A stretch of DNA of 64,000 nucleotides from Bacteroidia bacterium (GCA_030426345.1 JAUHYU010000013.1:1286-65285), one strand, 5' to 3'. Counted from the stretch's first letter, positions 25,736 through 60,854 are shown. Numbers and translations: made by a program. Notes: generated by a model not told the origin, from the sequence alone.

Positions 25736-25746
25736 CAGTCTTTAAT

Positions 25747-29431: not shown

Positions 29432-29445
29432 AGGCTTTTAGATTT

Positions 29446-31195: not shown

Positions 31196-31301
31196 CTTAC
31201 CATCAATATCACATCAGAATCGTGATTATTTTTTAATTTCCTAAAAATGGCTAAGTTATCATTAATAAACAACTAGACAATTGCACAAAAAAGGCTGTCT
31301 C

Positions 31302-31333
31302 ATTCTTATTATTGAGACAGCCTAATCTAATCA
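31302..31333 (-). terminator. rho-independent terminator after the SusD gene
   Basis: 11-bp stem AGGCTGTCTCA/TGAGACAGCCT with a 10-nt loop. On the minus strand it is followed by TTTTTGTG. Confidence 0.75.
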
Positions 31334-31350
31334 TGACCTTAATACCTGAT

Positions 31351-33111: not shown

Positions 33112-33122
33112 GATCCTACAAT

Positions 33123-36482: not shown

Positions 36483-36581
36483 AATTTTAACATGTTTTGT
36501 TGAACATTTAGGTTTAACACAATTGAAATCCTCAAAAGGGCTGTATCACGCCAATGAATGAAACCCTTCTGAGAATAGGAT

Positions 36582-36600
36582 GGCCGGCCTTGTGCCGGCC
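36582..36600. other. GC-rich hairpin in the anti-sigma-to-susC intergenic leader
   Basis: GGCCGGC-CTTGT-GCCGGCC. It sits in the same relative position as the hairpin at 29396. Confidence 0.6.
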
Positions 36601-36644
36601 CTTTTAGGATGAATTTGGCTTCATGGTTATTTGATGCATTTTGA

Positions 36645-37682: not shown

Positions 37683-37772
37683 GTATCAATAATTGAAGTA
37701 TGCTTTTATTGATAAGGAAGAGAGAATTGAAAATATACCCTTCGAAACAGAAAAAATAAGTGTGTTTTTTCG

Positions 37773-38443: not shown

Positions 38444-39688
38444 TTATAATACTGCATCTAAATCTTTTAAATCGGTATTTAAAACTTTTTGTATGATAGG
38501 CTCCAATTCCTTTACAGAACCTTGAATGTGCAGGGTAGTATGTGTGTGGGTCATGGATTTTTGAGGCTTTAGAAACGCGGCAGGAGAAGAACTCTCCAAC
38601 TCATAAAACGGCCCCATAGCTTTTCCGTCAACCGGGCCATCATTGTAAGAATTTGCAGCGTCACCGGCAAAAGGTGCTTCCTGCAGTTCCCACATGGAAT
38701 TCACATAGTCTGTGACGCCCTCAGGCTTTGAAAAATGTACAAGGGTCAACACTTCATTTTTGGCATCATAGCTTCCCATAAATGGCAAAGCCCTTTTTGG
38801 GTTCAACCCAATCTTGCTGCGGTATTTGCCATCGCCACTAAAAAACAGAACGCCATCGCCAATGATCAGCCTGTCTTCTGGAACCTTACCAAAATAGGTG
38901 TCATTGACAGTCGGGCCAAGTTCTGACTCATCTCCTTCGACAAAAGGAATGATGATCTTAGTCTCAGGAGATGGATTGTACATCCCAAGAATCCAAATGG
39001 ACAACGCGCCTGTTTCTTTGTCCCATGGATTTTGACCCGTATTTGTAATCGTATTTTCAGATTGATAGGCAACCATGTTCAAGTCTTTCGACAGATCAAG
39101 CCCCAACTGACCAGCCACTTCTTTCATGGATAAAAGACGGATTTTACGATCTACTTTTATATTAAAGCCTGTACCACTATAATTCTCAATTTCAAATTCC
39201 TTTTCAAAAACTACTTCCTTATTATTTTTTGAAACAACATCAAAAGGTTCAGAATCAATAACTGCCGGCGTTTGCCAATCATCAAAAACAAACTCGCTCC
39301 CCGGTTTGAAATAAATGGAAAATTGTCCTCCTTCCGGTCCAAGCCAAAATCGATCTTCACCGCCGACAGGATTGATGTGCGGAAGGTTTTCCCCAGATTC
39401 AATCAAATCATAATTGAGCCAGCCGTAGCTCAACCCGGCTTCTCCACCCGAACTGCTCGTCATTACCCGGCCTTGATATGCCGGGCAAATGGCCAACTGA
39501 GCATCACCATCCTTGAGCAGTATGGTTTCCTGATGTTTGGATAAAAATTCGGCATCATAACCAAAAGTACCTTTGGCAGGAGCAATAGATTGTTCTTTAT
39601 CCTTTTTCGGTTGGCAACCAAAAAATACCACAACACTCAATAGTACGACCAACACTGTTTTGCCTTTATACAAATACATATTTTTCAT
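38444..39688 (-). CDS. hypothetical lipoprotein, family not recognised
   Basis: 414 aa with lipobox VVFFGC and a conserved-looking GGEDRFWLGPEGGQFSIYF. The start lies 2 nt after the sulfatase stop, so the two are probably co-transcribed. Confidence 0.55.
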   Translation of the reverse strand: MKNMYLYKGKTVLVVLLSVVVFFGCQPKKDKEQSIAPAKGTFGYDAEFLSKHQETILLKDGDAQLAICPAYQGRVMTSSSGGEAGLSYGWLNYDLIESGENLPHINPVGGEDRFWLGPEGGQFSIYFKPGSEFVFDDWQTPAVIDSEPFDVVSKNNKEVVFEKEFEIENYSGTGFNIKVDRKIRLLSMKEVAGQLGLDLSKDLNMVAYQSENTITNTGQNPWDKETGALSIWILGMYNPSPETKIIIPFVEGDESELGPTVNDTYFGKVPEDRLIIGDGVLFFSGDGKYRSKIGLNPKRALPFMGSYDAKNEVLTLVHFSKPEGVTDYVNSMWELQEAPFAGDAANSYNDGPVDGKAMGPFYELESSSPAAFLKPQKSMTHTHTTLHIQGSVKELEPIIQKVLNTDLKDLDAVL

Positions 39689-39690
39689 TT

Positions 39691-41466
39691 TTAATTTGAT
39701 ACAATTTTAACCAGTTCTAGCCCTTTTACCTCCCCTACTGCTCCATTGGAAATTTGTCCGGCCCTCAAAACAATCCTTTGGTTTCCTTTTAGTACTGCCA
39801 GTTTTCCCAGATCCAGTTTGGCCCATGGTTTTTCATATACTTCTATGCGTTTTATCCTGTCAGGGCTAGGCAGGTACTCAGGATCATACGCCTTTTGAAT
39901 TTGCCCATGCGCACTGGAACCTAAAGTACTAACCTCCAGATCGGCCCCTAAATTTTCTTTCGGGCAACTGTACAACAAGTGCAACCTATACTCCGTGGGC
40001 TGATCTACCACCACATCCCAATAAATAGAATCCGAAGTATTTACCCAATTGACCAGCCAGTCATGCGCCCAGCCATGCCCTTCCTTAAATCTTATATCAC
40101 CCGAAAACCCAGACTCATGCGCCGGCAAATATGTGTTTTTTTCAGCATCAAAACCAATTTGAATTGCATCATCCGGCTTATAATCTTTGGTTACACCATC
40201 AATCCAATTACCATAAGCGGTCGCCAATGATCGCATCATTTCTTTGTTTTTCATGGAAATATCATGCTTTTGGCCTGGATCATTTTGCATATCAAACAGC
40301 ATGGTGTCGCCATTTTCTATCACCATTCTATATTGATCAGATCGAGTGGCACCATCCGGAATGATCACTTCTCTTGACTTTTTCGAAAAGAATAATCGCT
40401 GTGGAAAAGCCATTGAATCTCCATGAATCAAGGGGCTCAAATCCCTACCATCCAATGGCAGGGTTTCGGGAGGGTCGAGATTGCACAAGCTCACCAATGT
40501 TGGCAAAATGTCAATATGGCCAGCGATCTGGGATATGGATTTTTGAGGGATTTTACCCTCCCAATTGATGAAGCAAGGCACACGCACGCCTCCTTCGTGA
40601 ATGCTTCCTTTCACACCACGCATACCGCCATTGAAACGTTGTCCATTCGGCCCGTTGTCCGTCATGAAAATCACGATCGTGTTTTCCTCCAATTGAAGCT
40701 CCTTCAGCTTTTCATGGATTTTACCCACATTATCATCAATATTTTCACACATACCATAGACTGCGGCATCCTTATCATTAAAACCCAACTTTTTGTATTT
40801 GTCAAAATACTGATCCGGCACCTGAAACGGCCCGTGCGGTGCATTGAAAGGAATGTAGCAGAAAAAAGGATCGTCCTTATTTTTCTCAATAAAATTAATG
40901 GCCTCCCTTGTCAATACATCTGTGATATATCCATCGGTAGGAAATGGCTCACCGTTGTGTTCGAGTGTGGTAGAAAAATAGTTGTTCCAATGCCCAGCGC
41001 AGAAGCCAACAAACTCCTCAAACCCCTGCTGGTTGGGATGCTGAGGATAATGTGCGCCATTATGCCACTTGCCAAAACAGCCGGTTTTGTAACCCTGCGA
41101 CTGGAAAATTTCTCCGAGTGTAATTTCGCTTGGGTTCATATTTTCCAGACCTTTGCTTACCCATGATGTGCCTGTTCGAAGGTAATACCTTCCTGTCAGC
41201 AAACTGGCTCGGGTTGGCGCGCAAAGCGGACTGACATAGAACCGATCAAACTGAATACCCCTTGCTGCCATCTGATCGATATTTGGGGTAGAAAGCCTCT
41301 CATTTCCATGAATCCCCAAATCCCCCCATCCTTGGTCATCGGTGAGAATGAGGACGACATTTGGCCGATTTGGTTTTAGAGTGTTATCAGGTTTTGGGCT
41401 GTTGCAGCCAATATAAAGGCCAACAAAAAACATGATAAAAAGGGTGTTGAACAATGGATTTGTCAT
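39691..41466 (-). CDS. arylsulfatase-family (S1) sulfatase with extra C-terminal domain
   Basis: VVLILTDDQGWGD and the FGly motif SPLCAPTRASLLTGR. The ORF-track start at 41550 is an over-extension; the ATG at 41466 gives MTNPLFNTLFIMFFVGLYIGC. About 130 extra aa follow the catalytic domain. Confidence 0.88.
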   Translation of the reverse strand: MTNPLFNTLFIMFFVGLYIGCNSPKPDNTLKPNRPNVVLILTDDQGWGDLGIHGNERLSTPNIDQMAARGIQFDRFYVSPLCAPTRASLLTGRYYLRTGTSWVSKGLENMNPSEITLGEIFQSQGYKTGCFGKWHNGAHYPQHPNQQGFEEFVGFCAGHWNNYFSTTLEHNGEPFPTDGYITDVLTREAINFIEKNKDDPFFCYIPFNAPHGPFQVPDQYFDKYKKLGFNDKDAAVYGMCENIDDNVGKIHEKLKELQLEENTIVIFMTDNGPNGQRFNGGMRGVKGSIHEGGVRVPCFINWEGKIPQKSISQIAGHIDILPTLVSLCNLDPPETLPLDGRDLSPLIHGDSMAFPQRLFFSKKSREVIIPDGATRSDQYRMVIENGDTMLFDMQNDPGQKHDISMKNKEMMRSLATAYGNWIDGVTKDYKPDDAIQIGFDAEKNTYLPAHESGFSGDIRFKEGHGWAHDWLVNWVNTSDSIYWDVVVDQPTEYRLHLLYSCPKENLGADLEVSTLGSSAHGQIQKAYDPEYLPSPDRIKRIEVYEKPWAKLDLGKLAVLKGNQRIVLRAGQISNGAVGEVKGLELVKIVSN

Positions 41467-41543
41467 ATGGCAGTAGTGAATAAAAATAATATCCAAATTG
41501 CAAATAACAAAGCACAAACAAACATCAAGGCTCAAAAAAACAA

Positions 41544-41587
41544 AACACAAACCTTAGTCAGCTTGGCAGCTGACTAAGGTTTGTGTT
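41544..41587 (-). terminator. very strong hairpin plus U-tract (intrinsic terminator)
   Basis: 17-19-bp perfect stem CACAAACCTTAGTCAGC/GCTGACTAAGGTTTGTG with a 6-nt loop. On the minus strand it is followed by TTGTTTTTTTGAG. Confidence 0.8.
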
Positions 41588-47492: not shown

Positions 47493-49025
47493 ATGACTAC
47501 TAAAAATATTCCTGTTAACTTATTATTTATCCTTCTTGTTGTTCTCAGTTTTTCTTGTTCGCAAAAGGCAGACAATTCCACAGGAAAAGAGGCACCTCCA
47601 AACTTTATCCTTTTAATGGGCGATGATCATGGTTGGGATGAAGTGGGGTATAATGGTCATCCACATATCAAAACACCGGTACTAGACGAGATGTCCACAG
47701 AAGGCTTGCGATTTGATCGTTTTTACTCAGGCCACCCATCGTGCTCACCAACGCGAGGTAGTTTCATGACTGGGCGACATCCTAACCGCTACGGTACCTT
47801 TTCACCCAATTGGTCGATCAGGCCTGAGGAAATAAGTATTGCTCATATCTTAGGTGAGGCGGGGTATGCAAGTGCACATTATGGAAAATGGCATATAGGG
47901 CCAGTAAAAAGAGATTCACCAACAAGTCCTGGTGCGATGGGTTTTGATGAATGGCTTTCGCACGACAATTTCTTTGAGATGAATCCTGTTCTTTCTCGCA
48001 ATGGAGAGGATCCTCAGGAATTCAAAGGAGAAGGGTCTGCAATAATTATTGATGAGGCAATTTCATTTATCGAAAAGAGTACTGAAAATAATCAACTATT
48101 TTTTGTGGTCGTTTGGTATGGTTCTCCACATGAGCCATATAGTGGATTAGCAGAAGATTTATCCATTTACGATGATATTGTACAACAGTATGAGGATCAA
48201 ACAGTCAAACTTACCTCCAACGAAACTGGAAAAAGGGTAGAGCGTCCATTGGGCGAGGTATTGCGCGAAAGATATGCTGAAATCACAGCCATGGATCGGT
48301 CGATAGGAACATTGCGAAACTACCTAAAAAATGCCGGACTCCGGGACAATACGCTGTTGTGGTATTGCGGTGACAACGGGACGCCTGCGAGTGCAGCTCG
48401 TACAGGCATGACTTTGCGCGGGCAAAAAGCCACCATGTATGAAGGAGGAATACGTGTTCCTGCTGCCCTAGAATGGCCAGGTCGTATTAAGGCAGCAAAA
48501 GTCACAAATGTCAATTCCGTGACCAGCGATTTTCTGCCTACACTTTGTGAATTGGCAGGAGCACCATATCCAAATCGACCCCTGGACGGCATAAGCCTTG
48601 TTGCGACCATTGATGGGGACCAGCAGGTTCGCGACAAACCAATTTTCTTCTGGAGCTTTGAGACAGGAAAGGTGTTTGATGAATCATCGCAGCCTTACAT
48701 TGATCCTATCTCGCAAGAGGGCACGACACCGCTTGCCAAGATAATGGCTGGAAAATATACCCGTTCCTTTAAAAACTACAAATATCCAGAGATTGACATG
48801 AGCCACATCGGTGGTGCCAGAGTGATGCTAGACAATCAGTACAAATTGGTGTTGGATGAAAACTCAGAAACAAAAACAGGCGTGGAATTATTTGACATCA
48901 TCAATGACTCGGCAGAATCTAAAAATTTAATGGAGCAACGGCCGGAAGTTGTTTCAACCATGCAGAAACAACTGCTAGATTGGCAAAAAGAAGTGCTAAC
49001 GAGCCTAACAGGAGCTGATTATTGA
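47493..49025 (+). CDS. arylsulfatase-family (S1) sulfatase
   Basis: Lipoprotein-type signal (VLSFSC), LLMGDDHGWD and the FGly motif HPSCSPTRGSFMTGR. Confidence 0.9.
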   Translation: MTTKNIPVNLLFILLVVLSFSCSQKADNSTGKEAPPNFILLMGDDHGWDEVGYNGHPHIKTPVLDEMSTEGLRFDRFYSGHPSCSPTRGSFMTGRHPNRYGTFSPNWSIRPEEISIAHILGEAGYASAHYGKWHIGPVKRDSPTSPGAMGFDEWLSHDNFFEMNPVLSRNGEDPQEFKGEGSAIIIDEAISFIEKSTENNQLFFVVVWYGSPHEPYSGLAEDLSIYDDIVQQYEDQTVKLTSNETGKRVERPLGEVLRERYAEITAMDRSIGTLRNYLKNAGLRDNTLLWYCGDNGTPASAARTGMTLRGQKATMYEGGIRVPAALEWPGRIKAAKVTNVNSVTSDFLPTLCELAGAPYPNRPLDGISLVATIDGDQQVRDKPIFFWSFETGKVFDESSQPYIDPISQEGTTPLAKIMAGKYTRSFKNYKYPEIDMSHIGGARVMLDNQYKLVLDENSETKTGVELFDIINDSAESKNLMEQRPEVVSTMQKQLLDWQKEVLTSLTGADY

Positions 49026-49081: not shown

Positions 49082-50167
49082 CTATTTCCTTTTTCTCCGG
49101 TAGCTGTGTTTGTCGATTCCCAGGCCGGGCAATTCATTGGGATAGATAACGCCTTTCTTCAAATGAAATAATCCCGGGTAGGGATCATGGGTAAAATCCA
49201 AATGGCTGTCCAAATCAGCAAATTCGATATTGCGGCGGCTGAGGGCGAAATGCAGCCCTGCAGAAATACCCAGTTGGCATTCGTCTAGGCAACCCACCAT
49301 CACTTCATAGCCGGCTGATTTGGCGACTGAATTGATATTCAAGCCTTCTTGAATACCGCCCACTTTCATGAGCTTGACATTGATCATATCGACCCGGTTG
49401 TTTTTTGCCAACCGAAAAGAATCCTTGAGGGTTTTTAAACTTTCATCGGCCATCACAGGTTGCTGAATCTGATCGGTCAATTCGCTGAATTTATGTTCAT
49501 GTCTGGTTGCCATGGGCTGCTCAAAAATTTCAATGTTGACATCCCCTATTTCTGTAGCAAAATGGATTGCCTCTTCCAATTTATATCCCTGGTTTCCATC
49601 AAACCTCAATCGGATTTTTGGGTATTTTTTTCTGACGATCCTGAGTTTCTCAATGTCCTCTTCCATATCAACTCCTCCTTTGAGTTTGATGATGTAGAAT
49701 CCCTGTTCTATAAATTGATCGGCTTTTTGAATCGTTTCCTCCAATGGTAAAATACCAATGGTTACGCTCGTAGGGATACTCTCGCGGAATCCCCCAAGGT
49801 ATTTATAAAGCGGGACACCGGCATATTTGGCCACAAGATCAAACAATGCATTATCCACCATATTGAGTACAGAAGATTTGATAGAATCCTCCATCCTAAG
49901 CTCATGAATGATGCGGTTATAATTGAAAGGGTCTCTGTCTTGCAATAACGGTTTAAGCACATCCTCGAATTGACGCTGTACGTCATCGGGCGTTTCACCC
50001 GTCACCGGAACATCGGGTGCAGCACATCCAAAACCCTCAATCTTGCCCTTATCGGTTTGAAGCCGGAGCACAAAGTTGGTAGCGGAGGATATGGTTTCAT
50101 AAGCGATCGTGTACGGTTCACTTAGCTCCAAATCGTACCTTTCCAACTCCAGCCCAGTTATTCTCAT
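49082..50167 (-). CDS. enolase-superfamily MLE-subgroup epimerase/racemase (dipeptide epimerase or N-acetyl-D-Glu racemase DgcA-like)
   Basis: KxK motif IIKLKGG, metal ligands in RFDGNQGY, FEQPM and VMADES, and a second catalytic Lys in INVKLMKVGG. Confidence 0.8.
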   Translation of the reverse strand: MRITGLELERYDLELSEPYTIAYETISSATNFVLRLQTDKGKIEGFGCAAPDVPVTGETPDDVQRQFEDVLKPLLQDRDPFNYNRIIHELRMEDSIKSSVLNMVDNALFDLVAKYAGVPLYKYLGGFRESIPTSVTIGILPLEETIQKADQFIEQGFYIIKLKGGVDMEEDIEKLRIVRKKYPKIRLRFDGNQGYKLEEAIHFATEIGDVNIEIFEQPMATRHEHKFSELTDQIQQPVMADESLKTLKDSFRLAKNNRVDMINVKLMKVGGIQEGLNINSVAKSAGYEVMVGCLDECQLGISAGLHFALSRRNIEFADLDSHLDFTHDPYPGLFHLKKGVIYPNELPGLGIDKHSYRRKRK

Positions 50168-50186
50168 TGAATTGTTGTCATCCGGT

Positions 50187-51263
50187 TTACTTCTTTATTT
50201 TGTCTATCAGCAGTTGCGCCAAATCATCTGCACCAAATTTTAACACATCAAAACAGGGCAATCCGGTTTCTGCGGTTACATCCTTGCAGGCAGATTGGAT
50301 TTGATCATCCCGAAGCAATTCATGATTCAATGTAATGGCCAATACATCCTTGCCAGAAATCACTTTTATGGCATTGATTTGTTCATCTATCGGATGCAAT
50401 GGGTACCCCGGGAAACCATCATATTCTTTTCTTGTAGGGGCATGTTGCAAAATGACAAAATCCGGCCTTCCGGCAGCCAAAATTTCAAAACCACCGGGGT
50501 AAGCAGGGTTCATCAAACTCCCCTGTCCTTCTATGACGATCAAATCCGGTTTTTTCTCTTGATAGGCATTGACCACGGCATGCTCTATTTCACCAGAAAC
50601 AAAATCATTGATACAACTGTCCATAATCATGGAATACTGCGCTCCCTGCATCCAGGCTGTTTGACCGGTACCTACCATTTCGGCTTTATATCCTGCTTTG
50701 CGCACAGCATGTACGATAAGCCAGGCCGTTGTTCTCTTTCCAATAGCAGAATCAGTACCAAGTACAGCAATTTTCAGACAATTTACTTCCTCTATATCAC
50801 CTGTAAAGAAATGTAGTTGATCCCGATCAGGCGTTTTTCGCACATCCCGGATTGTACAATCATTTTCTTTGGCCAAAGCCACCAGCACAGGGTCGTTGGT
50901 GAGAAAGTCGTGAAGACCTGAGTCAACGTTCAACCCAATCTGTAATGCTTCCTTGATCTCAGACTTCGCTTCAACAGGTAGCCGCCCTCCGTCGGGGGCG
51001 AGCCCAATCACGAATTGCTTCGGCTGCACGTTTTTTTGTTGGCATGTTTCCATTGCCTTAGCGAAACTGTCAACAATCGGAATGCCATTGGCTTTACCGT
51101 CTAGCACTAGGCCGGCATCCTGACCTGAATATTTACCGTCAATGACAGCTTCAACTTGGTATCTTTCTGTAAACCGCACCAGTCCATGTGCAGTTTTCCC
51201 ATTGGGTGTATTAAAGGCCCCATCGCAATAAACGATGGCTGACCCATCTAATTTTTTACTCAT
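50187..51263 (-). CDS. DUF1611 family protein (DgcN-like putative N-acetyltransferase)
   Basis: 358 aa. The P-loop-like VLGTDSAIGKRTTAW is typical of DUF1611. Its ATG overlaps the stop of the upstream PLP-enzyme gene (TAATG). Confidence 0.7.
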   Translation of the reverse strand: MSKKLDGSAIVYCDGAFNTPNGKTAHGLVRFTERYQVEAVIDGKYSGQDAGLVLDGKANGIPIVDSFAKAMETCQQKNVQPKQFVIGLAPDGGRLPVEAKSEIKEALQIGLNVDSGLHDFLTNDPVLVALAKENDCTIRDVRKTPDRDQLHFFTGDIEEVNCLKIAVLGTDSAIGKRTTAWLIVHAVRKAGYKAEMVGTGQTAWMQGAQYSMIMDSCINDFVSGEIEHAVVNAYQEKKPDLIVIEGQGSLMNPAYPGGFEILAAGRPDFVILQHAPTRKEYDGFPGYPLHPIDEQINAIKVISGKDVLAITLNHELLRDDQIQSACKDVTAETGLPCFDVLKFGADDLAQLLIDKIKK

Positions 51264-52330
51264 TATTTTGTATTTTTTGCAGTTAGAATAGCTACATAAC
51301 GGTCAGGGGCAAAGGAAAGTTGCTCATGTTGTTTGAGCAACCCTATCAGTCCTGCTGTAGAAGCCGGAAGTATGTTTTTAGATTCTTTAGCCATTAAGTA
51401 TTTGGCGGTAATTTTCATTTCCTGATCATTGACGTTGTAAGCACTTCCGCCACTTTGTCTGATGGCATACAAAGCCTCCTCTCCATCGAAACTGTGCCAG
51501 TTGACAAGCGGTTCGTTCATAACAGTTTCTTTGATCGACTCAGGCTTTAAGTCTACACATTGGCTCAATCCTTTATTAAACGAATATACGATAGGGTTTT
51601 TACCGACGGACGAAGCCCCGAGCATAAATGGAATTCGAGAGGTTTTGCCCCTTTTGTATAAAGTCACAAAGCCCCTATAAATCCCAGCCAATAAAGTACC
51701 GTTGGAAATCGGAACTGCACAGATTTTTGGTGCATCACGCAATTGATCATAAATTTCGTATGCAATCTCGCTATAGGCTTGTATTTGCAATGGTGTATTG
51801 GCCCCTCCAGGGTTGGCATCATACCATTTGTTTTCTTTGGCCAGTTGGCTGCTCTCTATCACATTGTCTTCGTAGGTGCCTTTGAACCTGATAATCTCAC
51901 TTCCAAAGTCTTCCATTTCTTTGATGCGTACTGTATGGTAAGATTCCGGTATGTAAACTTTGCATTTGATGTTCGCAAGGCTAGCTGCATAGGATACTGC
52001 CGAACCATAATTGCCACATGTCGCCAAACTGATGGTGTTGTATTTTCGGCGCATGGCATCATAAACCTGCGCAAATGCAATCCTATCCTTTTGTGTTCCT
52101 GTAGGGTTGTCGCCTTCTGTTTTCAGATAAAGCTGCCTAATGTCATAATCGCGCTCCATACTTTTGGCCCTGAGCAAACTGGTATCACCGACTTCAAGAT
52201 TGATAATGTCTTCCAGAGATTCCAGTCGGTCAATGAATCGATTTTTTTTATTCTTGACGAATTCACTAAGCTCCAGTGTTTCTTTACTGAATTTATACTC
52301 AACTGTTTTTGTTAAATCCCTTATGTTCAT
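51263..52330 (-). CDS. PLP-dependent enzyme, tryptophan-synthase-beta/threonine-synthase-like fold
   Basis: 355 aa with the PLP-lysine context EGDNPTGTQKDR and a Gly-rich phosphate loop. Specificity unknown. Confidence 0.75.
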   Translation of the reverse strand: MNIRDLTKTVEYKFSKETLELSEFVKNKKNRFIDRLESLEDIINLEVGDTSLLRAKSMERDYDIRQLYLKTEGDNPTGTQKDRIAFAQVYDAMRRKYNTISLATCGNYGSAVSYAASLANIKCKVYIPESYHTVRIKEMEDFGSEIIRFKGTYEDNVIESSQLAKENKWYDANPGGANTPLQIQAYSEIAYEIYDQLRDAPKICAVPISNGTLLAGIYRGFVTLYKRGKTSRIPFMLGASSVGKNPIVYSFNKGLSQCVDLKPESIKETVMNEPLVNWHSFDGEEALYAIRQSGGSAYNVNDQEMKITAKYLMAKESKNILPASTAGLIGLLKQHEQLSFAPDRYVAILTAKNTK

Positions 52331-52480
52331 GATTAATTGAAAATCAGATTAAACGATAAATTAATTGACATTCAAATATTAAAATAGACAATCGCTATTA
52401 TATTTTTGTACTTACGAATCTATGGAATAATACCATAGTTGGTTATGAATAGCGGATTATTTTCATAGATTTCTTATTTC

Positions 52481-52522
52481 CTAAAAAGCCTTTAAAATCC
52501 ATGGATTTTAAAGGCTTTTTAG
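52481..52522. repeat. perfect 42-bp palindrome made of two motif copies fused at CCATGG
   Basis: CTAAAAAGCCTTTAAAATCCATGGATTTTAAAGGCTTTTTAG. Lies 30 nt downstream of the TonB-receptor stop. Confidence 0.95.
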
Positions 52523-52551
52523 GATTAAATCGGGTTCATGGGGCTTATGGC

Positions 52552-55056
52552 TTAAAACTCCTTCTCGCCAAATTCACTTTTTATAAATTTAGCACTGTTT
52601 TTTAGCTTGTTAAATTTATAGCTGAGGTTGATGATGACCATATCTACTTCATAGACATAGTTGGTGGTGGTGTAAAAAGCCTTTCGGACATTATCTGCAG
52701 GATCGATATATTCGCCGGAAGTCGTGATCCGCTGTTCGTTGGTATCCAGCAATCCCATATCCATGTTGAGCCATTGTCCGGTAACGGTAAACCTGTCGTC
52801 GAAAAAGGATTTTTTTACCGTCAAGTTTGGCGAATAAAAACGCGTGTCCACTCCCTGAGCGGTGATGCGATCGGAAAGGTAATTGAGCGTCCACTGAATG
52901 CTTAAGGTAGAAGTCACATCAAAAGTAGTATTGATATTGAAAGAATGCTGCCAAGCACTTGTATTGATTTCTGAAACGTTAAACATTCCATCAATGGCAT
53001 AATGATAAATATTACCACCCACATTTAACTTCCACCAATCGCTCAGTTTTAAGTCAGCCCCTAATTCCAAACCAAAGGCCTCACCATTCCCTACATTGGT
53101 ATATATCCTATTGAGCACCGTGTCGCTATCCACAGTATTCACACGGTTAATCACGTTTTGGGTATTTCTATAATATACATTGCCAAAAACGGAATGATCT
53201 TCAAAATCCTTGATAAAGCCAAACTCCACGAGGTCGATAAACTCCGGCAACAGGTTGGCATCGCCCTGTTCGAGCGTTTCCGAATGTTCCTTTTCCTTAA
53301 ATGGATTCATTTTAAATGTCGTGGTGCGCTCCACGCGTTTGCTATAGGCAGCTTTCAGTTTCAGGTCGTCCTTTACAGTGTATTGCAAATTGGCAGATGG
53401 AAATAATTTAACATAGTCGTAATTCAACACCTCGGTTTGAGATCCGGGCACGCTGCTGAGAAAATCTAGTTGCCTGTCCATGGCCTCAATCCGCAGCCCC
53501 GCACCATAATTCCATTTCCCCTTTTCACCCGCAAAATCCAAATACCCTGAGTGAATCTTTCTTTTCAAATTGAGATTGCTCGAATATTCATAGACAGTTT
53601 CCCATTCGTCTGTATCAAAGTTGTAGGCTTCATACAGAAAATCCCCTTTGTGATCAAGGTTTCGATATTGATATCCCATGGATAATTGACCCATTTCCCA
53701 TGGTTTCCATTCGTAGTCAATATTAAACCTGGTTCCATGAAGTGGGTTGTCGTTGGTATTGTATTCGTCATTATATATTTCTTGGCCTTCAGGCCAATCA
53801 TAGTCCAGGTTTTGACTTGTAGTAGGCCCTCCTAGAAGCGTATATTCATATAAGTAAGAAGCAGAAAGTTTTGATTTATTTTCAAAAGTGTGTGCATAGT
53901 CAATACTTCCCAACACAAAATCACCCGTTCTTATCCGAAGGTTATGATTATAATAATCGAACGACCCAATCTGTTCTCCGCCTGGTAATCGATAGTTAGT
54001 ATTGTTATAGTAAATATCTGCCAAACGATCCTTTGACCTTTTACCGGCATAGAAGCCAAAGTTAAAATCGTTATTTTCATCGGGATGAAAACCAATAGCG
54101 AGCCGGCCTGAATAATTGGTCTCAACAAAACTTCTTTCCCCGTCAGACGGAAATTGCGTACGCTTATCCCCTATTTCCGTCCACACATCACCTTCCCTGC
54201 GTCCTGACAAATCATTTCTTTGGTAACTTCCTCCAAGCGAAAGATCCCACTTGTCTTTGCGATAGTTGATCGTGAAGTCGCCACCGTATCGAACGGGGTT
54301 TTCCTTGTTGTCGTACGGCTCGATGCTAGGCATACCAATTTTGGCATTCACCTGTGCAAATACGCCATCTGTGGCATTTCGAGTGGTTATGATGTTGATG
54401 ATGCCTGCCTTGCCTTCAGAATCATACTTGGCCGATGGGGCAGTGATCACTTCAATATTTTGAATGGCATTGGCAGGCAACTGATTGAGCAGCATCGATA
54501 CATCAGACTGGATCGGCTTACCATTGAGCAAGACCACAAAACCAGTAGCCCCTCTTACCATGATTCCACCTTCAGAATTCATACTTACTGAAGGCAAATT
54601 GCGGAGTACATCAGTTGCGGTACCTCCTTCGCTGCTTTGGTATTGGGAGGTTTCATAAACCTGCCGATCTACCTTGTGCATGGTCGTGACGCGCTCACCC
54701 GAAATCTCCAGCTCTTCTAAAAGTTTCTCATTGGCATACATAACTATGGATCCCAAATCTAAAGTCTGTCTTTTGGATAAGCTGATGCCCTCAACTTTTT
54801 CAGTGGCAAAACCCATGAATTGCGCTTCCAAATAATAATTTCCCGGCTTTATATCCTTTAACTCAAACTTGCCTTGTTCATTAGATACCACTCCGGCAAT
54901 AAGAGTACTATCACTTATATCATACAATGCCACGCTGGCAAATTCAATGGGTGACTTTTCAGAATTGTCAACTAGTTTCCCTTTTATAATAGATTGGCCA
55001 AATACAAATGATGTTATTAAGAATAAAAAGAATAGGATAAATGGTCCTTTCATCAA
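52552..55056 (-). CDS. TonB-dependent receptor (CarboxypepD_reg + plug + barrel, not SusC-type)
   Basis: 834 aa with a signal peptide, IKGKLVDNSEKSPIEFASVAL, the plug motif ...MVRGATGFVVLLNGKP, and a terminal F. Confidence 0.88.
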   Translation of the reverse strand: MMKGPFILFFLFLITSFVFGQSIIKGKLVDNSEKSPIEFASVALYDISDSTLIAGVVSNEQGKFELKDIKPGNYYLEAQFMGFATEKVEGISLSKRQTLDLGSIVMYANEKLLEELEISGERVTTMHKVDRQVYETSQYQSSEGGTATDVLRNLPSVSMNSEGGIMVRGATGFVVLLNGKPIQSDVSMLLNQLPANAIQNIEVITAPSAKYDSEGKAGIINIITTRNATDGVFAQVNAKIGMPSIEPYDNKENPVRYGGDFTINYRKDKWDLSLGGSYQRNDLSGRREGDVWTEIGDKRTQFPSDGERSFVETNYSGRLAIGFHPDENNDFNFGFYAGKRSKDRLADIYYNNTNYRLPGGEQIGSFDYYNHNLRIRTGDFVLGSIDYAHTFENKSKLSASYLYEYTLLGGPTTSQNLDYDWPEGQEIYNDEYNTNDNPLHGTRFNIDYEWKPWEMGQLSMGYQYRNLDHKGDFLYEAYNFDTDEWETVYEYSSNLNLKRKIHSGYLDFAGEKGKWNYGAGLRIEAMDRQLDFLSSVPGSQTEVLNYDYVKLFPSANLQYTVKDDLKLKAAYSKRVERTTTFKMNPFKEKEHSETLEQGDANLLPEFIDLVEFGFIKDFEDHSVFGNVYYRNTQNVINRVNTVDSDTVLNRIYTNVGNGEAFGLELGADLKLSDWWKLNVGGNIYHYAIDGMFNVSEINTSAWQHSFNINTTFDVTSTLSIQWTLNYLSDRITAQGVDTRFYSPNLTVKKSFFDDRFTVTGQWLNMDMGLLDTNEQRITTSGEYIDPADNVRKAFYTTTNYVYEVDMVIINLSYKFNKLKNSAKFIKSEFGEKEF

Positions 55057-55079
55057 TGTGCAAATTTAATTTTTGCACA
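55057..55079. promoter_or_regulatory. 8-bp inverted repeat abutting the TonB-receptor start codon
   Basis: TGTGCAAA-N7-TTTGCACA, starting 1 nt upstream of the ATG whose first base (minus strand) is at 55056. Confidence 0.35.
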
Positions 55080-55138
55080 AAAGTCCGAATTGGATTATTT
55101 AAAATACGGTATTAATTCATGGATTCATGGTGCATTTT

Positions 55139-55948
55139 TCAATGCGATGCAGACCTGTACTCCATGGGTGTCATGGCGGTGAGTGATTTAAAAAATTTAT
55201 TGAAGTTGGAAGCATCGCTAAAATCCAACTGATAGGCAATTTCTGATATTGTGAGGCTGGTATGGGAAATGAGATTTTTAGCCTCAATAATTATGCGCTC
55301 TTTAATGATGTTTTGTGCGGAAGATTGCATCACTTTTTGGCATATAGTATTTAGTCTGTGTGTGCTGATTTTCATCAAATCTGCATAATCTGAAACCTTT
55401 CGTAGCTGCAAAAAGTGCTTGTCAATTAGCTTTTTAAAAGTATTAAAATCCGCAAGAAGAAAATCATCTATCTGTGATTCACCACCCTCAAGGGAAATCG
55501 TCTTTATGATAATGAGATTGAGATATGCACTTAGAATTTCATGGGATTCACCTGCTTTGAACAACTTATAAAATCGTTCTACAAGATGAATGAGTTCTCC
55601 ATCTCCAGAAAACTCAAAAATCTTTGAAAGCTTAAAGAGGCCATTCAAAGTAGTTGGATAGTTGTTCAAAAAATCTTCTTTAAAAAGTATTACAAATCCA
55701 TCGGGAATCTGGGAAAAATCCCAACAATGCACGCTTCCCGGACTTAGGTAAAATCCATCAAACGGTTTAACTTCAAACAACTTGTCATCAACTGAATGAG
55801 TACCAGAACCTCTCGACAGATAAATCAGTTCATGGTATCCCGCATGTTTATGGGGTTTGGTCGGTTTGATCACAGGCTTCATCCGTGAAACCTTCACCAG
55901 CATATCCTCATCTAATTTCTTCTTCAATCCGATCGATCCCGATGACAT
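55139..55948 (-). CDS. AraC-family transcriptional regulator with cupin-like sensor domain
   Basis: N-terminal cupin-like HKHAGYHELIYLSRGSGTH...GSVHCW. C-terminal double HTH ...ISEIAYQLDFSDASNFNKFFKSLTAMTPMEYR. Confidence 0.9.
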   Translation of the reverse strand: MSSGSIGLKKKLDEDMLVKVSRMKPVIKPTKPHKHAGYHELIYLSRGSGTHSVDDKLFEVKPFDGFYLSPGSVHCWDFSQIPDGFVILFKEDFLNNYPTTLNGLFKLSKIFEFSGDGELIHLVERFYKLFKAGESHEILSAYLNLIIIKTISLEGGESQIDDFLLADFNTFKKLIDKHFLQLRKVSDYADLMKISTHRLNTICQKVMQSSAQNIIKERIIIEAKNLISHTSLTISEIAYQLDFSDASNFNKFFKSLTAMTPMEYRSASH

Positions 55949-56078: not shown

Positions 56079-57563
56079 CTAGGCCAAAATATCCTTGACT
56101 ACGTGTCCGTGTACATCTGTGAGCCTATAGCGACGGCCTTGATGTTTAAAAATTAGCTTCTCATGATCTACGCCTAGCAAGTGAAGTAAAGTGGCCTGAA
56201 AATCATGGACATGAACACCATTGTTGACAATATTATAACTAAAATCATCTGTTTTTCCATAGACCGTGCCAGGCTTGATGCCTCCACCGGCCATCCACAT
56301 GGTAAAGCATCTTGGGTGGTGGTCACGACCATAATTATCATGTGTGAGCTGTCCTTGAGAAAAACTTGTTCGTCCAAACTCCCCTCCCCAAACCACAAGT
56401 GTATCCTCCAACAATCCACGCTGTTTGAGGTCCTTTACCAAAGCCGCAGAGGCCTGATCACTCGATTTTGCGAGGCGTTGGATATCGGATGGCAAATTAC
56501 CATGTTGGTCCCACCCCATGTGATAGAGTTGGATAAACGGCACGTCCTTCTCTGCCAGTCGTCGAGCCAGTAAGCAATTGGCAGCGTAACTGCCGGGCTT
56601 GCGCACATCAGGTCCATACATATCTAGAATACAATCAGGCTCATTTGAAATATCCGTAACCTCGGGAACACTGGTTTGCATACGATAGGCAAGCTCATAT
56701 TGATTTAATTTAGAATCCATCTCAGGGTCACCCCAAACAGATTTTTGCTCCTTTTCAAGTTTCTCTAGATAATCCAACTCACGACGGCGACTTTGCATAT
56801 CAATTCCATCAGGATTAGATAAATAAAGCACAGGGTCAACACCAGATCTAAACCTCACACCCTGATGATGAGATGGAAGAAAGCCATTGTTCCAAATCTG
56901 CATATTCAGATTTTGTGTATCCGGCTTGCCCCTGGACAACAGCACGATAAAAGCCGGCAGGTTTTTATTTGGGCTACCAAGTCCATAGCTCATCCACGAA
57001 CCGATGCATGGTCGGCCTACCTGCTGAGAACCGGTCTGTAAAAATACGATGGCCGGTTCGTGGTTGATGGCTTCCGTGTACATGGAATTTACCACACATA
57101 TATCGCTAGCGATGGAAGAAATATGAGGAACAAGGCTACTAAAATACCCTCCAGTTTCGGGATGTTTCTTAAAATCAAATTTAGATCCAACAAGCGGAAA
57201 ACTGGACTGCGCAGCAAGCATCCCTGTGATCCGTTGGTCACCACGAACGCTATCCGGAATTTCTTCACCCCATCGCTTCGTGAGTTCCGGTTTGTAATCA
57301 AACAATTCAATCTGGCTGGGGCCACCGCTTTGAAAAAGATAGATGACCCGCTTGGCTTTTGGGGCATGATGCAATGCCCTTGAGATTTCACTCTCCGCCA
57401 TACTGTTCATTTGAGATCCAGAAACCATCGATTTTCCATGAACCATATCCGGGAAAAACATAGATCCCAGTGCCATTGCTCCCAACCCTTTGCTCGTCGT
57501 CCTGATAAACTCCCGTCGGGTTTTTAGATAGTTGGCGTTTTGTATATCAAATGAATTTTTCAT
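56079..57563 (-). CDS. DUF1501 protein (sulfatase-fold, Tat-exported)
   Basis: Tat-type RREFIRTTSKGLGAMALG. About 490 aa, with GGEFGRT and GRDHHP near the C-terminus, typical of DUF1501. Confidence 0.8.
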   Translation of the reverse strand: MKNSFDIQNANYLKTRREFIRTTSKGLGAMALGSMFFPDMVHGKSMVSGSQMNSMAESEISRALHHAPKAKRVIYLFQSGGPSQIELFDYKPELTKRWGEEIPDSVRGDQRITGMLAAQSSFPLVGSKFDFKKHPETGGYFSSLVPHISSIASDICVVNSMYTEAINHEPAIVFLQTGSQQVGRPCIGSWMSYGLGSPNKNLPAFIVLLSRGKPDTQNLNMQIWNNGFLPSHHQGVRFRSGVDPVLYLSNPDGIDMQSRRRELDYLEKLEKEQKSVWGDPEMDSKLNQYELAYRMQTSVPEVTDISNEPDCILDMYGPDVRKPGSYAANCLLARRLAEKDVPFIQLYHMGWDQHGNLPSDIQRLAKSSDQASAALVKDLKQRGLLEDTLVVWGGEFGRTSFSQGQLTHDNYGRDHHPRCFTMWMAGGGIKPGTVYGKTDDFSYNIVNNGVHVHDFQATLLHLLGVDHEKLIFKHQGRRYRLTDVHGHVVKDILA

Positions 57564-57575
57564 CGCTTACCACTT

Positions 57576-60500
57576 TTAATTTTTATAATACCCTTCAGTA
57601 GAATTCAGGATGGTATTGGCCAGCCTAGCCATAGCCGCCAGTTCTGGTTTTGGGATCGAAGCATTTGGAACTGCCCTGCCAATATCCAAATAAGCCTCGT
57701 TGTTTTTTTGATTCATTTTAAAATAGTTCAACTCCTCCACAAATTGTTCATTTAAAATTTGCTCTTCTCTCTTCGTAGGATACCTGCTAGTCAATGATCG
57801 AAAAACATTTGTGATGGCTTTCTGTTGATTTCCATTGGTCTCTTTCCATTCCTTTTCTGCCAGCACACGGCAACCTTCTATCATTTGTGGGTCATTGAGC
57901 AGTGCCAAAGCTTGCAAGGGAGTGCTGCTTCGCTGTCGTCTTACCTGGCATTCTGCTCGGCTGGCAGCATCAAAGATCAGCATGTTTGGCGGGGGCATAT
58001 TTCTTTTCCAGAAAGTATAAATACTCCGACGATACAATCCGTTGTCATAATCAACCTCATATTCGGGAAAAAACTTATGAGCCATTACTTCTTTCCAAAG
58101 TCCTGGGGGTTGGTACGGAAATACAGATATTCCTCCAATTTGATTATCCAATAAACCACTAGTTGCCAATATATTGTCCCTGATCATTTCAGCCGAACGG
58201 CGATATCTTGGCCCCCTTGCCAATAATTTGTTGTCAGGATCGATCTCTTTCAGTTCAGGCCTGATCACTGATGATTGTCGATAAGTTGCCGATAGCACCA
58301 TCTGGCGAATAAGCCTCTTCATGTCCCACCCATTTTTTTGAAAGTCAATCGCCAGCCAATCCAGCAATTCTGGATGCGTTGGAAGTGCACCCTGATTGCC
58401 AAAATCCTCCACTGTTTCTACAATGCCCCTGCCAAACATCAGGTACCAAGCCTGATTAACTGCTACCCTTGCAGTTAGTGGATTGTCAGGATGCACCATC
58501 CATTTTCCCAATCCATATCGGTTTTTGGGCAGGTTTTTTGGAAATGCAAAAATGGATTCCGGCACATTGCTTTGCACTTCTTCCCCTGCCGCATTATACA
58601 CCCCACGGTTCAGTATGTAAGTTGGACGCAGTTTTGGAAAATCTCCCATCACCATAATTTCCTGTGTCGTATCCATCAATTCGATTTCACGGGCCTGAAC
58701 TGCTCTCAATTGTTCACGGCCTTTTTCCAGTTCCTGATCTATAAAAAGGTCATAAAATTCATGAAGTTGTCGATCATTCTTTTTCAGTGCTTCGGCAAAT
58801 TCCAATTTTCCATTTTCCTTATCATAAAGATATTTGGCAACAAAATCATCTGCTTCTTTATTGAGAATTTGTACTTCATCGAGCATGCCTCCAGTAAAAT
58901 CCTGATCATAATGACGGTTGCCAATGATCAAACCATTGTAACCCATATAGACAGTTGCCTCGGCATTCAGGTATGGTTTAGATGATCTGTAAATATAATT
59001 CCGTTCAATTTCCATGGGAATTTGCTCCCCATTTTGATATACCTTCATTCCTTTTGCATTGCTCGATCCATCATAGGTCCATACAAAATGTACCCATTCA
59101 TTTAGCGGCAGCGGCTCAGGTGTGCGGATATCCAATGATTGGTACGGATGCGCATGGTTCAGCCGAAAATGTACCCGTCCCGAATCGAGCATGACATCCC
59201 ATCCTCGGTATCCTTGTATCCTGTTGTTGCCATTATAGATCACATGAGCTTCGTCAAAAGTCTTCGGGGTATTGATCCAAAAACTGACTGTGTATGGTTC
59301 CATTCTTTCGAAAACAATCCTACGGCCATCAGCGACAAGTTTTCCATTGGCATCGCTGCGCACTGCATGGCCTATTTTGCCTGGGACTGGGGCAATATTG
59401 CCGGAATAGCTTGCTGATTCTGCCCCTTTTGCTAAATCCGTCGTTTTTCCATCTACCATGTCATCAAAAGTAAGATGGGTAACCGTGGCACTTTCTACTC
59501 TTTCATCTAAAAGACCGTCGCCTTTTTGCGTTTTCAGCCATTGCCGAAAATCAGGTTCATTTATTTTTTCATGCTTTCGCAAATCGTTTTGCATACTATC
59601 GATCCTATGCAATAGATATTCACGTATGGCTTCTGTCTCCTTAGCCACTAATGGCAAAACTGGCCCTGAATTCATTGAATATTTATTGGGCACTTTCTGT
59701 CCATATTCTATGGCGTTTAGGCTAAATATGCCATCGCCCCGTTCGATGGTGGAATTGAAAAAGCCATACATCTGATAATAATTTTCTTGGCTGATCGGGT
59801 CGTATTTGTGGTCATGGCACCTGGCACATCCTACCGTCAATCCCAAAAATGCCGTGCCTACCGTATTGGTTCTATCCACATTATACTCAACCCTGAACTC
59901 CTCGGGGATAATACCGCCTTCTGAATTTTGCTTATGATTTCTGTTGAAGGCCGTAGCCAAAATTTGTTCTTGAGTGGCATTGGGAAACTGGTCACCCCCA
60001 ACCTGCCATGAAATAAATTTGTCGTAAGGTAGGTTCTCATTGAACGCTTTGATCACCCAATCCCGATATGGCCAAAAAGTATGGTGAAAATCATCGAGAT
60101 ATCCCTCGGAATCAGCAAACCGAGCCACGTCCAACCAATGGGCCGCCATTCTTTCTCCATAAGCAGAAGTGTTCAAAAGACTATCTACCAACCTTTCATA
60201 GTACTTTTCATTTTTGTTATCTACCCAATGATCCAAATCATCCAATGAGGGAGGCAAGCCGGTGATGTCAAAGAATACGCGCCGAACGAGTTGCTCTCGG
60301 TTGGCTTCCGGCGCAGGTTTTAGATCATGATTTTCTAATTTTCCCGCTATAAAATGGTCAATTTCATTTATACCCCAATCGCCCTCTGCTTTCGGGACTT
60401 TGGGTTCCTTAGGTTTTATAAAAGCCCAATGTGGTGCGTATTTTGCGCCTTGTTGAATCCACTTAATCAGAATGGCTTTTTCAGCAACAGTGAGCATGAG

Positions 60501-60854
60501 GTTTGACTCGGGAGGTGGCATTATTATTTCCTTGTCCTCAGAAAGAATGCGCTGTACTAAATAGCTTTTTTGGATATTCTTCGGGACAATGGCATGTCCG
60601 TTGCCACTAGCGAGAGCGGCATAGGCGCTTTCTTCACTATCCAATCTCAGTTCTGATTTTTGCTGTTTGGCATCGGGGCCATGGCAAGCAAAACAACGGT
60701 CTGAAAGTATTGGCTTAACGTGGAAATTGTAATCTATGCGATCCGGTGCCCTGGATATTTCAGATGTTATTTCTTCAGAAAGCCCTGAACCGCAGGCATA
60801 GACCAATATTAGCAAACATATATGAAATAAATATTGGAAAGCATTCCATCTCAT
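57576..60854 (-). CDS. PSCyt / DUF1549 / LamG-like / DUF1553 multidomain protein
   Basis: 1092 aa. The N-terminal CFACHGPD is a planctomycete-type cytochrome c domain. DUF1549-like WLDVARFADSEGY and CARCHDHKYDP follow, then a ConA/LamG-like insert and a DUF1553-like C-terminus. It lies 12 nt upstream of DUF1501. Confidence 0.8.
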   Translation of the reverse strand: MRWNAFQYLFHICLLILVYACGSGLSEEITSEISRAPDRIDYNFHVKPILSDRCFACHGPDAKQQKSELRLDSEESAYAALASGNGHAIVPKNIQKSYLVQRILSEDKEIIMPPPESNLMLTVAEKAILIKWIQQGAKYAPHWAFIKPKEPKVPKAEGDWGINEIDHFIAGKLENHDLKPAPEANREQLVRRVFFDITGLPPSLDDLDHWVDNKNEKYYERLVDSLLNTSAYGERMAAHWLDVARFADSEGYLDDFHHTFWPYRDWVIKAFNENLPYDKFISWQVGGDQFPNATQEQILATAFNRNHKQNSEGGIIPEEFRVEYNVDRTNTVGTAFLGLTVGCARCHDHKYDPISQENYYQMYGFFNSTIERGDGIFSLNAIEYGQKVPNKYSMNSGPVLPLVAKETEAIREYLLHRIDSMQNDLRKHEKINEPDFRQWLKTQKGDGLLDERVESATVTHLTFDDMVDGKTTDLAKGAESASYSGNIAPVPGKIGHAVRSDANGKLVADGRRIVFERMEPYTVSFWINTPKTFDEAHVIYNGNNRIQGYRGWDVMLDSGRVHFRLNHAHPYQSLDIRTPEPLPLNEWVHFVWTYDGSSNAKGMKVYQNGEQIPMEIERNYIYRSSKPYLNAEATVYMGYNGLIIGNRHYDQDFTGGMLDEVQILNKEADDFVAKYLYDKENGKLEFAEALKKNDRQLHEFYDLFIDQELEKGREQLRAVQAREIELMDTTQEIMVMGDFPKLRPTYILNRGVYNAAGEEVQSNVPESIFAFPKNLPKNRYGLGKWMVHPDNPLTARVAVNQAWYLMFGRGIVETVEDFGNQGALPTHPELLDWLAIDFQKNGWDMKRLIRQMVLSATYRQSSVIRPELKEIDPDNKLLARGPRYRRSAEMIRDNILATSGLLDNQIGGISVFPYQPPGLWKEVMAHKFFPEYEVDYDNGLYRRSIYTFWKRNMPPPNMLIFDAASRAECQVRRQRSSTPLQALALLNDPQMIEGCRVLAEKEWKETNGNQQKAITNVFRSLTSRYPTKREEQILNEQFVEELNYFKMNQKNNEAYLDIGRAVPNASIPKPELAAMARLANTILNSTEGYYKN

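Follow-up and report, generated by a model that had tools for sequence, protein, structure and literature searches.

Two independently conserved units probably meet in a Bacteroidia genome: an AraC-receptor pair and an uncharacterized PLP enzyme-DUF1611-epimerase operon

A stretch of 64,000 nucleotides from a Bacteroidia bacterium (GCA_030426345.1, JAUHYU010000013.1:1286-65285; here called the window, with positions counted from its first letter) carries five minus-strand genes in a row between positions 49082 and 55948, encoding an AraC/XylS-family regulator, a TonB-dependent outer membrane receptor, a pyridoxal phosphate (PLP)-dependent enzyme, a DUF1611 protein, and an enolase superfamily epimerase. 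Do these genes form one system? The original prediction, made from the sequence alone, answered yes and saw a single module that senses, imports, and converts a D-glutamate-containing or related compound. Our comparative analysis favors a different reading, to which we assign a probability of roughly 60%: the region would consist of two independent neighboring units, an AraC-receptor unit (55948-52479) and a PLP enzyme-DUF1611-epimerase operon (52330-49082; here called the trio) for an uncharacterized pathway in which epimerization of an amino acid, probably other than glutamate, would be linked to acylation.

The gene calls themselves were sound. Re-reading of the sequence bore out the five open reading frames (ORFs) with their coordinates and junctions, and Pfam and NCBIfam profile searches agreed with the family label of each. 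None of the five is a spurious call; their close homologs number in the hundreds to thousands. The trio opens with the gene for a fold-type II, threonine synthase-like PLP enzyme (51263-52330), whose stop codon has base 51263 in common with the start codon of the second gene (TAATG, read as AAATAATGAGT). This second gene (50187-51263) encodes the DUF1611 protein, with a Rossmann-like N-terminal domain and a P-loop domain, and after a gap of 19 nt (50168-50186) it is followed by the third, for an MLE-subgroup epimerase of the dipeptide epimerase type (49082-50167). On the other side lie the regulator gene, whose product has an N-terminal cupin sensor domain (55139-55948; Pfam HTH_18, Cupin_2, and AraC_binding), an intergenic region with receptor promoter-like elements (55057-55138), and the gene for a non-SusC receptor (52552-55053) with the Pfam domains CarboxypepD_reg, Plug, and an OMP_b-brl_3/TonB barrel. 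Its most likely start codon is ATG 55053 (MKGPFILFFLF...) rather than TTG 55056. A spacer of 221 nt, absent from the original prediction, separates the receptor stop (52552) from the PLP gene start (52330).

Loci related to the trio were collected from one genome per species, which yielded 421 related stretches, and the best 80, all from other species, were kept. They derive from Flavobacteriaceae, Saprospiraceae/Lewinellaceae, Balneolaceae, Calditrichota, Melioribacteraceae, Marinilabiliaceae, Marinimicrobia, SAR324, and metagenome-assembled genomes of Desulfobacterota. In tblastn searches with the window proteins, the PLP enzyme was encoded directly upstream of DUF1611 in 80/80 loci (one copy is cut by a contig end) and the epimerase downstream of DUF1611 in 66/80, and homologs of the window receptor and of its AraC regulator were found in 0/80. 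Unsupervised clustering of the 1158 neighboring ORFs of these loci returned only five recurrent families, namely, PALP (the PLP enzyme), DUF1611, MLE, a PP-loop protein of ~503 amino acids (37 to 39 loci), and a creatininase-family protein of 266 amino acids (32 loci); the next most frequent family reached 12 of the 80 loci, and no transporter or regulator was conserved among these neighbors. The commonest architecture is the three-gene form of the window (37 loci), and a five-gene form in the order PALP-DUF1611-503aa-creatininase-MLE occurs in 26/80 (e.g., L055, 11068-13369, and also L010, L011, L056, L063, L079, and L082). The 503-amino-acid protein carries an SGGKDS PP-loop and shows a weak local match to the ATP-dependent epimerase MurL, and no sequence relatives of it were found in the PDB; neither its gene nor the creatininase-family gene is present in the window. 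The PLP gene is usually first in its unit, with upstream gaps of mostly at least 90 nt and an upstream gene on the opposite strand in 39 of 75 cases.

This recurrent co-occurrence marks the three enzyme genes as a true functional unit, as had been proposed, and no other partner of this DUF1611 clade is as constant as the PLP enzyme, which had been taken for an unusual extra. The trio is a real but uncharacterized stand-alone operon of marine Bacteroidota-type bacteria, without a dedicated transporter or regulator, and it is spread over Bacteroidota, Balneolales, Calditrichota, Ignavibacteriota, Marinimicrobia, SAR324, and some Desulfobacterota. A literature search found no description of a PLP enzyme-DUF1611-epimerase cluster. 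A Eudoraea/Muriicola-type variant (L013, L020, L026, L038, and L040; positions ~11100-20800) has PALP and DUF1611 genes followed by a 160-amino-acid ORF, as well as genes for a PPDK_N/PEP-utilizing protein (794 to 966 amino acids) and a class A beta-lactamase-like protein; the PP-loop gene follows at a distance of ~8 kb, and no epimerase gene is adjacent.

The AraC-receptor pair has a conservation pattern of its own. Receptor orthologs with 60 to 72% identity were found in Reichenbachiella, Echinicola, Flexithrix, Fulvivirgaceae, and Flammeovirgaceae, which makes a member of the Cytophagales related to Reichenbachiella the probable source of the window. In 6/6 Cytophagales genomes, the gene directly upstream of the receptor ortholog, on the same strand, is an AraC gene, and the trio lies beside the pair in 0/6. 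The genes downstream vary (Fur, another receptor, DUF3500, a C25 peptidase, and others). Identity of the window AraC protein to the respective pair partners is 55 to 56% in Echinicola and Flexithrix and 32 to 34% in Reichenbachiella. In one of the six, a Flammeovirgaceae genome (L100, 2680-5800), the AraC gene has been split into sensor and helix-turn-helix fragments by inserted DDE transposase genes. The receptor itself had no SusC-type match in NCBIfam, no adjacent SusD gene, and no sequence relative in the PDB; genuine SusC/SusD pairs occur elsewhere in the window (24050-36482).

Upstream of the receptor gene, TTTG (55081-55078) and TAAATTTG (55068-55061) match the -33/-7 promoter consensus of Bacteroidota. 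The same region contains a tandem repeat of CCATGAAT (two copies, 55130-55115) and the palindrome TGTGCAAA-N7-TTTGCACA (55079-55057), which overlaps the -7-like box, and ACCAT(A/G)-type repeats recur upstream of the receptor orthologs; all three are candidate AraC and/or repressor sites. The AraC-type sensor would presumably control the adjoining receptor gene, which would be transcribed from its own promoter and end in the hairpin described below. A metal chelate as the receptor ligand is a weak guess. The window AraC protein gave weak matches to the RhrA and Btr models of NCBIfam, and the arrangement of an AraC gene directly upstream of a single non-SusC receptor gene resembles the AraC-regulated siderophore receptor systems PchR-FptA, YbtA-Psn, and RhrA-RhtA. 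In addition, a Fur gene lies downstream of the receptor ortholog in one Reichenbachiella genome. Unlike the siderophore systems, however, the window pair has no siderophore biosynthesis or ATP-binding cassette uptake genes nearby.

Between the two units, 27 nt past the receptor stop, begins a palindrome that is perfect over 46 nt (52479-52524; TCCTAAAAAGCCTTTAAAATCCATGGATTTTAAAGGCTTTTTAGGA; no strand assigned), and from there an AT-rich stretch of 148 nt on the minus strand (52331-52478), the presumed trio promoter region, extends to the ATG of the PLP gene. As RNA, the palindrome is predicted to fold into a hairpin with a 21-bp stem (-28.6 kcal/mol; z = -7.5 versus shuffles) flanked by A and U runs; in form it would be a bidirectional intrinsic terminator that resembles repetitive extragenic palindromes (REP-like). 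It is a multicopy element: word depth at the palindrome was 7 to 9 times that of its flanks in three metagenomes, with many different flanking sequences, and an unrelated metagenome contig (L102, 1352-1392) carries an identical core between two convergent genes. A generic sigma-70 promoter/terminator scan yielded no more hits than expected by chance; it overlooked the palindrome, since the T-run belongs to the stem. A search for Rfam riboswitches was negative for the window as well as for seven orthologous loci. An inverted CTATGG-N7-CCATAG element is present upstream of the PLP gene (52420-52438) and recurs in only 2/78 PLP gene upstream regions.

The receptor-trio junction itself is only probable, since the short-k contigs of all three metagenome runs break within the multicopy palindrome; read depth is equal on either side of the palindrome, which is shorter than a typical read. 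On a low-depth contig of one metagenome, position 51279 is joined to 49337 with 33 extra letters in between, which may be a strain variant or an assembly artifact touching the DUF1611 and epimerase genes.

The strong terminator-type hairpin between the units speaks against joint transcription of receptor and trio. The trio thus lies downstream of the receptor by position, as originally described, but probably not in the transcriptional sense, and the adjacency of the two in this genome appears to be due to chance. Adjacency on the same strand to a receptor and a regulator is here no evidence of a functional module.

What, then, might the trio do? The original prediction linked its second and third proteins to DgcN (D-glutamate N-acetyltransferase) and DgcA (N-acetyl-D-glutamate racemase), a D-glutamate catabolic pathway reportedly worked out by Yu et al. 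in 2023 (ISME J 17:537), and to our knowledge DgcN is the only characterized member of the DUF1611 family. For comparison, we used PGAP-named dgcR-dgcN-dgcA loci on Pseudoalteromonas and Pantoea plasmids (L093 and L094). The window protein (Pfam DUF1611_N and DUF1611) has thousands of homologs, the best of which are 70 to 77% identical across families (FCB group and other marine lineages). It reached 157 bits (E = 6e-46; residues 71-350 only) on the DgcN equivalog model NF041892, whose curated cutoff is 480 bits, versus 493 bits over the full length for genuine Pseudoalteromonas DgcN. Identity to genuine DgcN is 27 to 29%, and the two fall into separate clades of a neighbor-joining tree, in which the DgcN clade includes 7xrj and the window clade is sister to DUF1611 proteins of Vibrio and Ruegeria. 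The first 70 residues do not align to DgcN; they align to the uncharacterized structures 2obn (Anabaena) and 2g0t (Thermotoga). A P-loop is conserved family-wide, and in the window clade its DTBS-like form GTDSAIGKRTT is invariant. In common with the DgcN-DgcA system, the trio has tightly coupled, adjacent genes for DUF1611 and then an MLE-subgroup racemase, and presumably the same logic, in which a D-amino acid is N-acylated and the N-acyl derivative racemized. In contrast to the genuine dgc locus L093, which is organized as dgcR (LysR)-dgcN-dgcA, the window has PALP-DUF1611-MLE, opening with an obligate threonine synthase-like PLP enzyme that genuine dgc loci do not have; it carries no LysR gene, and the nearby AraC gene goes with the receptor.

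The epimerase scored above the cutoffs of Pfam MR_MLE_N and MR_MLE_C, and its motifs IIKLKGG, NVKLMKVGG, RFDGNQG, EQP, MADES, and ADLD are conserved. It thereby has the KxK motif, the second catalytic lysine, the three acidic metal ligands, and the Asp-x-Asp motif (DLD) of MLE-type dipeptide epimerases. It stayed below every NCBIfam equivalog cutoff, with 149.5 bits on the DgcA model NF042940 (cutoff, 400; genuine DgcA, 402) and 229 and 89 bits on the L-Ala-D/L-Glu epimerase models NF041118 (cutoff, 500) and NF011708 (cutoff, 343), and it forms its own clade with 21 to 28% identity to genuine DgcA. The catalytic lysines and Asp-x-Asp are common to both enzymes. The closest solved structure is Bacillus subtilis YkfB (1jpm; 1.7e-61; 35% identity), which, like Escherichia coli YcjG, belongs to murein peptide recycling. 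Catalytic and metal-binding residues and Asp-x-Asp are the same in YkfB (1jpm/1tkk), but unlike the YkfB and YcjG genes, that of the window epimerase has no peptidase genes in its context. Asp-x-Asp was also considered as a sign of a free-amine dipeptide substrate, which was dropped, as genuine DgcA has the motif too.

The substrate loop differs from those of both relatives. The 20s loop PYTIAYET is invariant in 66 epimerase orthologs, with AYET in place of ISRGT in DgcA and ALRTV in YkfB. Glu23 of the window epimerase aligns with YkfB Arg24, which binds the glutamate gamma-carboxylate (1tkk), and AYET of the window clade contains no Arg or Lys. The 20s-loop Arg of DgcA, which would bind the glutamate side chain carboxylate, is likewise replaced, with the invariant Glu next to that position. 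The AYET loop is suggestive only: it points away from glutamate as the substrate and would be in keeping with a basic or neutral compound. Membership of the two DgcN/DgcA families keeps the D-amino acid theme of the original prediction reasonable, N-acyl-amino acids included; its choice of D-glutamate fits poorly with the loop.

The PLP enzyme (Pfam PALP), in which the PLP lysine K81 is invariant, has threonine synthases as its closest sequence relatives (~100 bits, 24 to 28% identity), and these were also the top Foldseek matches of its AlphaFold2 model (TM ~0.63). On the threonine synthase model TIGR00260 (thrC) it reached 100 bits, below the cutoff of 167, and it was far below the cutoffs of other threonine synthase models. 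NCBI names its orthologs "pyridoxal-phosphate dependent enzyme," and JGI and UniRef name them threonine synthase. At T88, N154, S155, and R160 of the Thermus thermophilus enzyme, which together with N188 bind the phosphate of O-phosphohomoserine, the window enzyme has Y108, G, A, and Q182, and only the fifth is retained (N210); Y108, Q182, and N210 are invariant among orthologs. The fold-type II fold, PLP lysine, and G-N loop are those of T. thermophilus ThrC (1uim/1v7c), but unlike ThrC, which goes with thrA and thrB, the PLP enzyme is always paired with DUF1611. Judging from these residues, it appears to be a threonine synthase-like fold without the phosphate site that does not serve threonine synthesis. 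An invariant Cys precedes the G-N loop (ATCGNYG); speculatively, it occupies the position at which fold-type II serine racemases presumably have a Ser as the re-face base. A plasmid of Chondrinema litorale (L099, 8974-12588) carries a 60%-identical paralog of the PLP enzyme without DUF1611, next to genes for polyphosphate kinase 2, an AstE/AspA-family deacylase, and a 2OG-Fe(II) oxygenase.

Relatives outside the clade provide further clues to the chemistry. The closest such DUF1611 proteins (41 to 43% identity over the full length) come from Vibrio, Ruegeria, and other marine Proteobacteria, and on the Vibrio and Ruegeria plasmids (L090, 6869-9207, and L091, 6878-9195) the DUF1611 gene overlaps a gene for an Alr-family PLP enzyme whose best match is the ornithine racemase model Orr (376 and 252 bits). 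The Orr-like gene looks like a nonorthologous, nonhomologous replacement of the PLP partner and by analogy points to a racemase-type role, perhaps on a basic amino acid. In Haloferax, DUF1611, dipeptide epimerase, and D-aminoacylase genes occur together. An N-acyl theme is suggested by the amidohydrolases acting on N-acyl-amino acids that accompany related clusters, namely, this D-aminoacylase, the AstE/AspA-family deacylase of Chondrinema, and the creatininase-family enzyme of 32/80 loci.

A pathway can be proposed along these lines. The PLP enzyme would act first, on a free amino acid, in a racemase-like or an elimination/replacement-type reaction. By analogy with DgcN, the DUF1611 protein would then N-acylate or ligate the amino acid, giving an N-acyl-amino acid or a dipeptide whose alpha-carbon the epimerase would invert. 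Where they are present, as in 26/80 genomes, the creatininase-family amidohydrolase and the PP-loop ATPase could provide deacylation and activation. The structure of the units, their conservation, and the placement of the enzymes outside DgcN/DgcA, the L-Ala-D/L-Glu epimerases, and, with one passed model to the contrary, threonine synthase are seen in the data; the order of the reactions, the acyl donor, and the substrate are our inference. Glutamate is an improbable substrate, and a basic amino acid, for instance ornithine or lysine, is a possible one. The logic of acylation, racemization, and deacylation is also that of the N-succinylamino acid racemase routes: in Geobacillus and Bacillus, the racemase with a succinyltransferase and a desuccinylase achieves irreversible D-to-L conversion, and the Bacillus cereus N-succinyl-Arg/Lys racemase acts on basic amino acids. 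The latter, 2p88, is an MLE-subgroup enzyme that matches the window epimerase at 6.5e-48 but, unlike it, has ELT instead of Asp-x-Asp. Furthermore, the acyltransferase of these routes is a GNAT protein and not DUF1611, and they include no PLP enzyme. The trio is kin in logic and ancestry to both the DgcN-DgcA and the N-succinylamino acid racemase routes and a member of neither.

Several observations weigh against two separate units with this chemistry. Separate transcription is deduced from the hairpin and from comparative genomics, and the AraC protein may co-regulate the trio, as the CTATGG-N7-CCATAG element resembles the ACCAT(A/G) repeats of the receptor orthologs. The locus was found in metagenome DNA runs only. 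The order of the steps is read from family membership. The PLP enzyme passes NF004996 (PRK06381, "threonine synthase") with 404 bits versus a cutoff of 266, and its structure model is of moderate quality (pLDDT 68). Asp-x-Asp cannot tell dipeptide from N-acyl substrates because genuine DgcA has it, and the Glu-for-Arg argument is only suggestive because the Methylococcus enzyme (3rit), with an Arg at the position of YkfB Arg24, presumably prefers cationic dipeptides. Finally, DUF1611 proteins also occur in nonribosomal peptide synthetase and other biosynthetic clusters, so that a role as an acetyl-CoA-dependent acyltransferase is not assured.

How far the reading of the trio can be taken is a matter of degree. 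It is possible, though tentative, that the trio, in 26/80 genomes extended by the MurL-like PP-loop ATPase and the creatininase-family amidohydrolase, is a new pathway whose substrate is a D-amino acid or dipeptide that is nonacidic and perhaps basic (such as D-Orn, D-Lys, or D-Arg). A threonine synthase-fold enzyme would in that case have been recruited, always with DUF1611, to a new racemase- or lyase-like reaction, and the pathway would be widespread in the marine FCB group and miscounted as "dgcN" or "threonine synthase."

Rather doubtful, in our view, is a biosynthetic role, in which the PLP enzyme would make or racemize an unusual amino acid, DUF1611 would be an ATP-dependent ligase forming a dipeptide or pseudopeptide, and the epimerase would set the D-configuration of a solute, signal, or envelope component. 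The lack of any transporter or regulator conserved with the cluster, the very high cross-phylum conservation (70 to 77% for DUF1611), the invariant DTBS-like P-loop, the biosynthetic clusters in which DUF1611 is found, the PP-loop ATPase of the extended operon, and the ornithine racemase-like partner in the sister clade would all agree with it. However, the sole biochemical precedent for DUF1611 is catabolic and uses acetyl-CoA, the three kinds of amidohydrolase rather fit deacylation in salvage, and there is no candidate for the product.

Unlikely is a Bacteroidota version of the DgcN-DgcA route, in which DUF1611 would acetylate D-glutamate or another acidic D-amino acid and the epimerase would racemize the N-acetyl product. 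Apart from the match of the window protein to the model of the only characterized DUF1611 member and the Asp-x-Asp common to both epimerases, it is favored by a 2025 metagenome survey whose dgcN counts include genes of Bacteroidia, Rhodothermia, and Marinisomatia (PMC12363236). This survey and PMC10845958 both cite the work of Yu et al. on DgcN-DgcA. The scores of both proteins are only about one-third of the equivalog cutoffs (157 and 150 bits versus 480 and 400), they fall into separate clades, the alignment of DUF1611 to DgcN leaves out its first 70 residues, the 20s-loop Arg is replaced with an invariant Glu adjacent, and genuine dgc loci have no counterpart of the obligate PLP partner. 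The identity with DgcN and DgcA that was originally suggested does not hold.

Very improbable, and already largely refuted by the conservation data, is the single system of AraC sensing, receptor import, and three-enzyme conversion of a D-glutamate-containing compound. Its genes are adjacent on the same strand, a CCATAG/CCATGA-type motif is possibly present in both upstream regions, and DUF1611 and the MLE-type epimerase belong to the DgcN/DgcA families. Nevertheless, it is not supported, because the two units are conserved separately (0/80 trio loci with the receptor or AraC, and 6/6 receptor orthologs with AraC but none with the trio) and joined in this genome only; the original prediction had itself named a lack of co-conservation as an outcome that would refute it. 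The terminator hairpin between the units, the failure at both equivalog cutoffs, the absent Arg for the gamma-carboxylate, and the LysR-type DgcR instead of AraC at the genuine dgc locus point the same way. That the epimerase is an ordinary L-Ala-D/L-Glu epimerase of murein peptide recycling with incidental neighbors, as its best NCBIfam (NF041118) and PDB (YkfB) matches would suggest, is hardly credible given that it missed both cutoffs (229 versus 500 and 89 versus 343 bits), has an invariant Glu for YkfB Arg24, forms its own clade, and is linked to PALP-DUF1611 in 66/80 loci.

The wider window provides some context for the two units. Positions 24050-38387 hold two tandem sets of an ECF sigma factor, a FecR anti-sigma factor, a SusC-like receptor, and a SusD-like lipoprotein. 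A DUF6786 protein (38444-39688) and sulfatases (39691-41550 and 47493-49025) are encoded nearby, and the whole is a sulfated polysaccharide utilization region. Directly upstream of the AraC gene (56079-60854) lies a Planctomycete-type pair, consisting of a 1092-amino-acid PSCyt1/PSCyt2/PSD1 protein with a Laminin_G_3 domain and a 494-amino-acid DUF1501 protein.

For this clade, the label dgcN given in surveys and the label threonine synthase given by some annotation pipelines are probably wrong, which concerns at least 421 stretches in species-representative genomes. For function discovery, the strictly conserved, translationally coupled pair of a threonine synthase-fold PLP enzyme and DUF1611 makes a well-defined target, and so does its parallel in Proteobacteria, DUF1611 with the Orr-like enzyme. 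Work on the trio could uncover a new D-amino acid or N-acyl-amino acid route in abundant marine heterotrophs.

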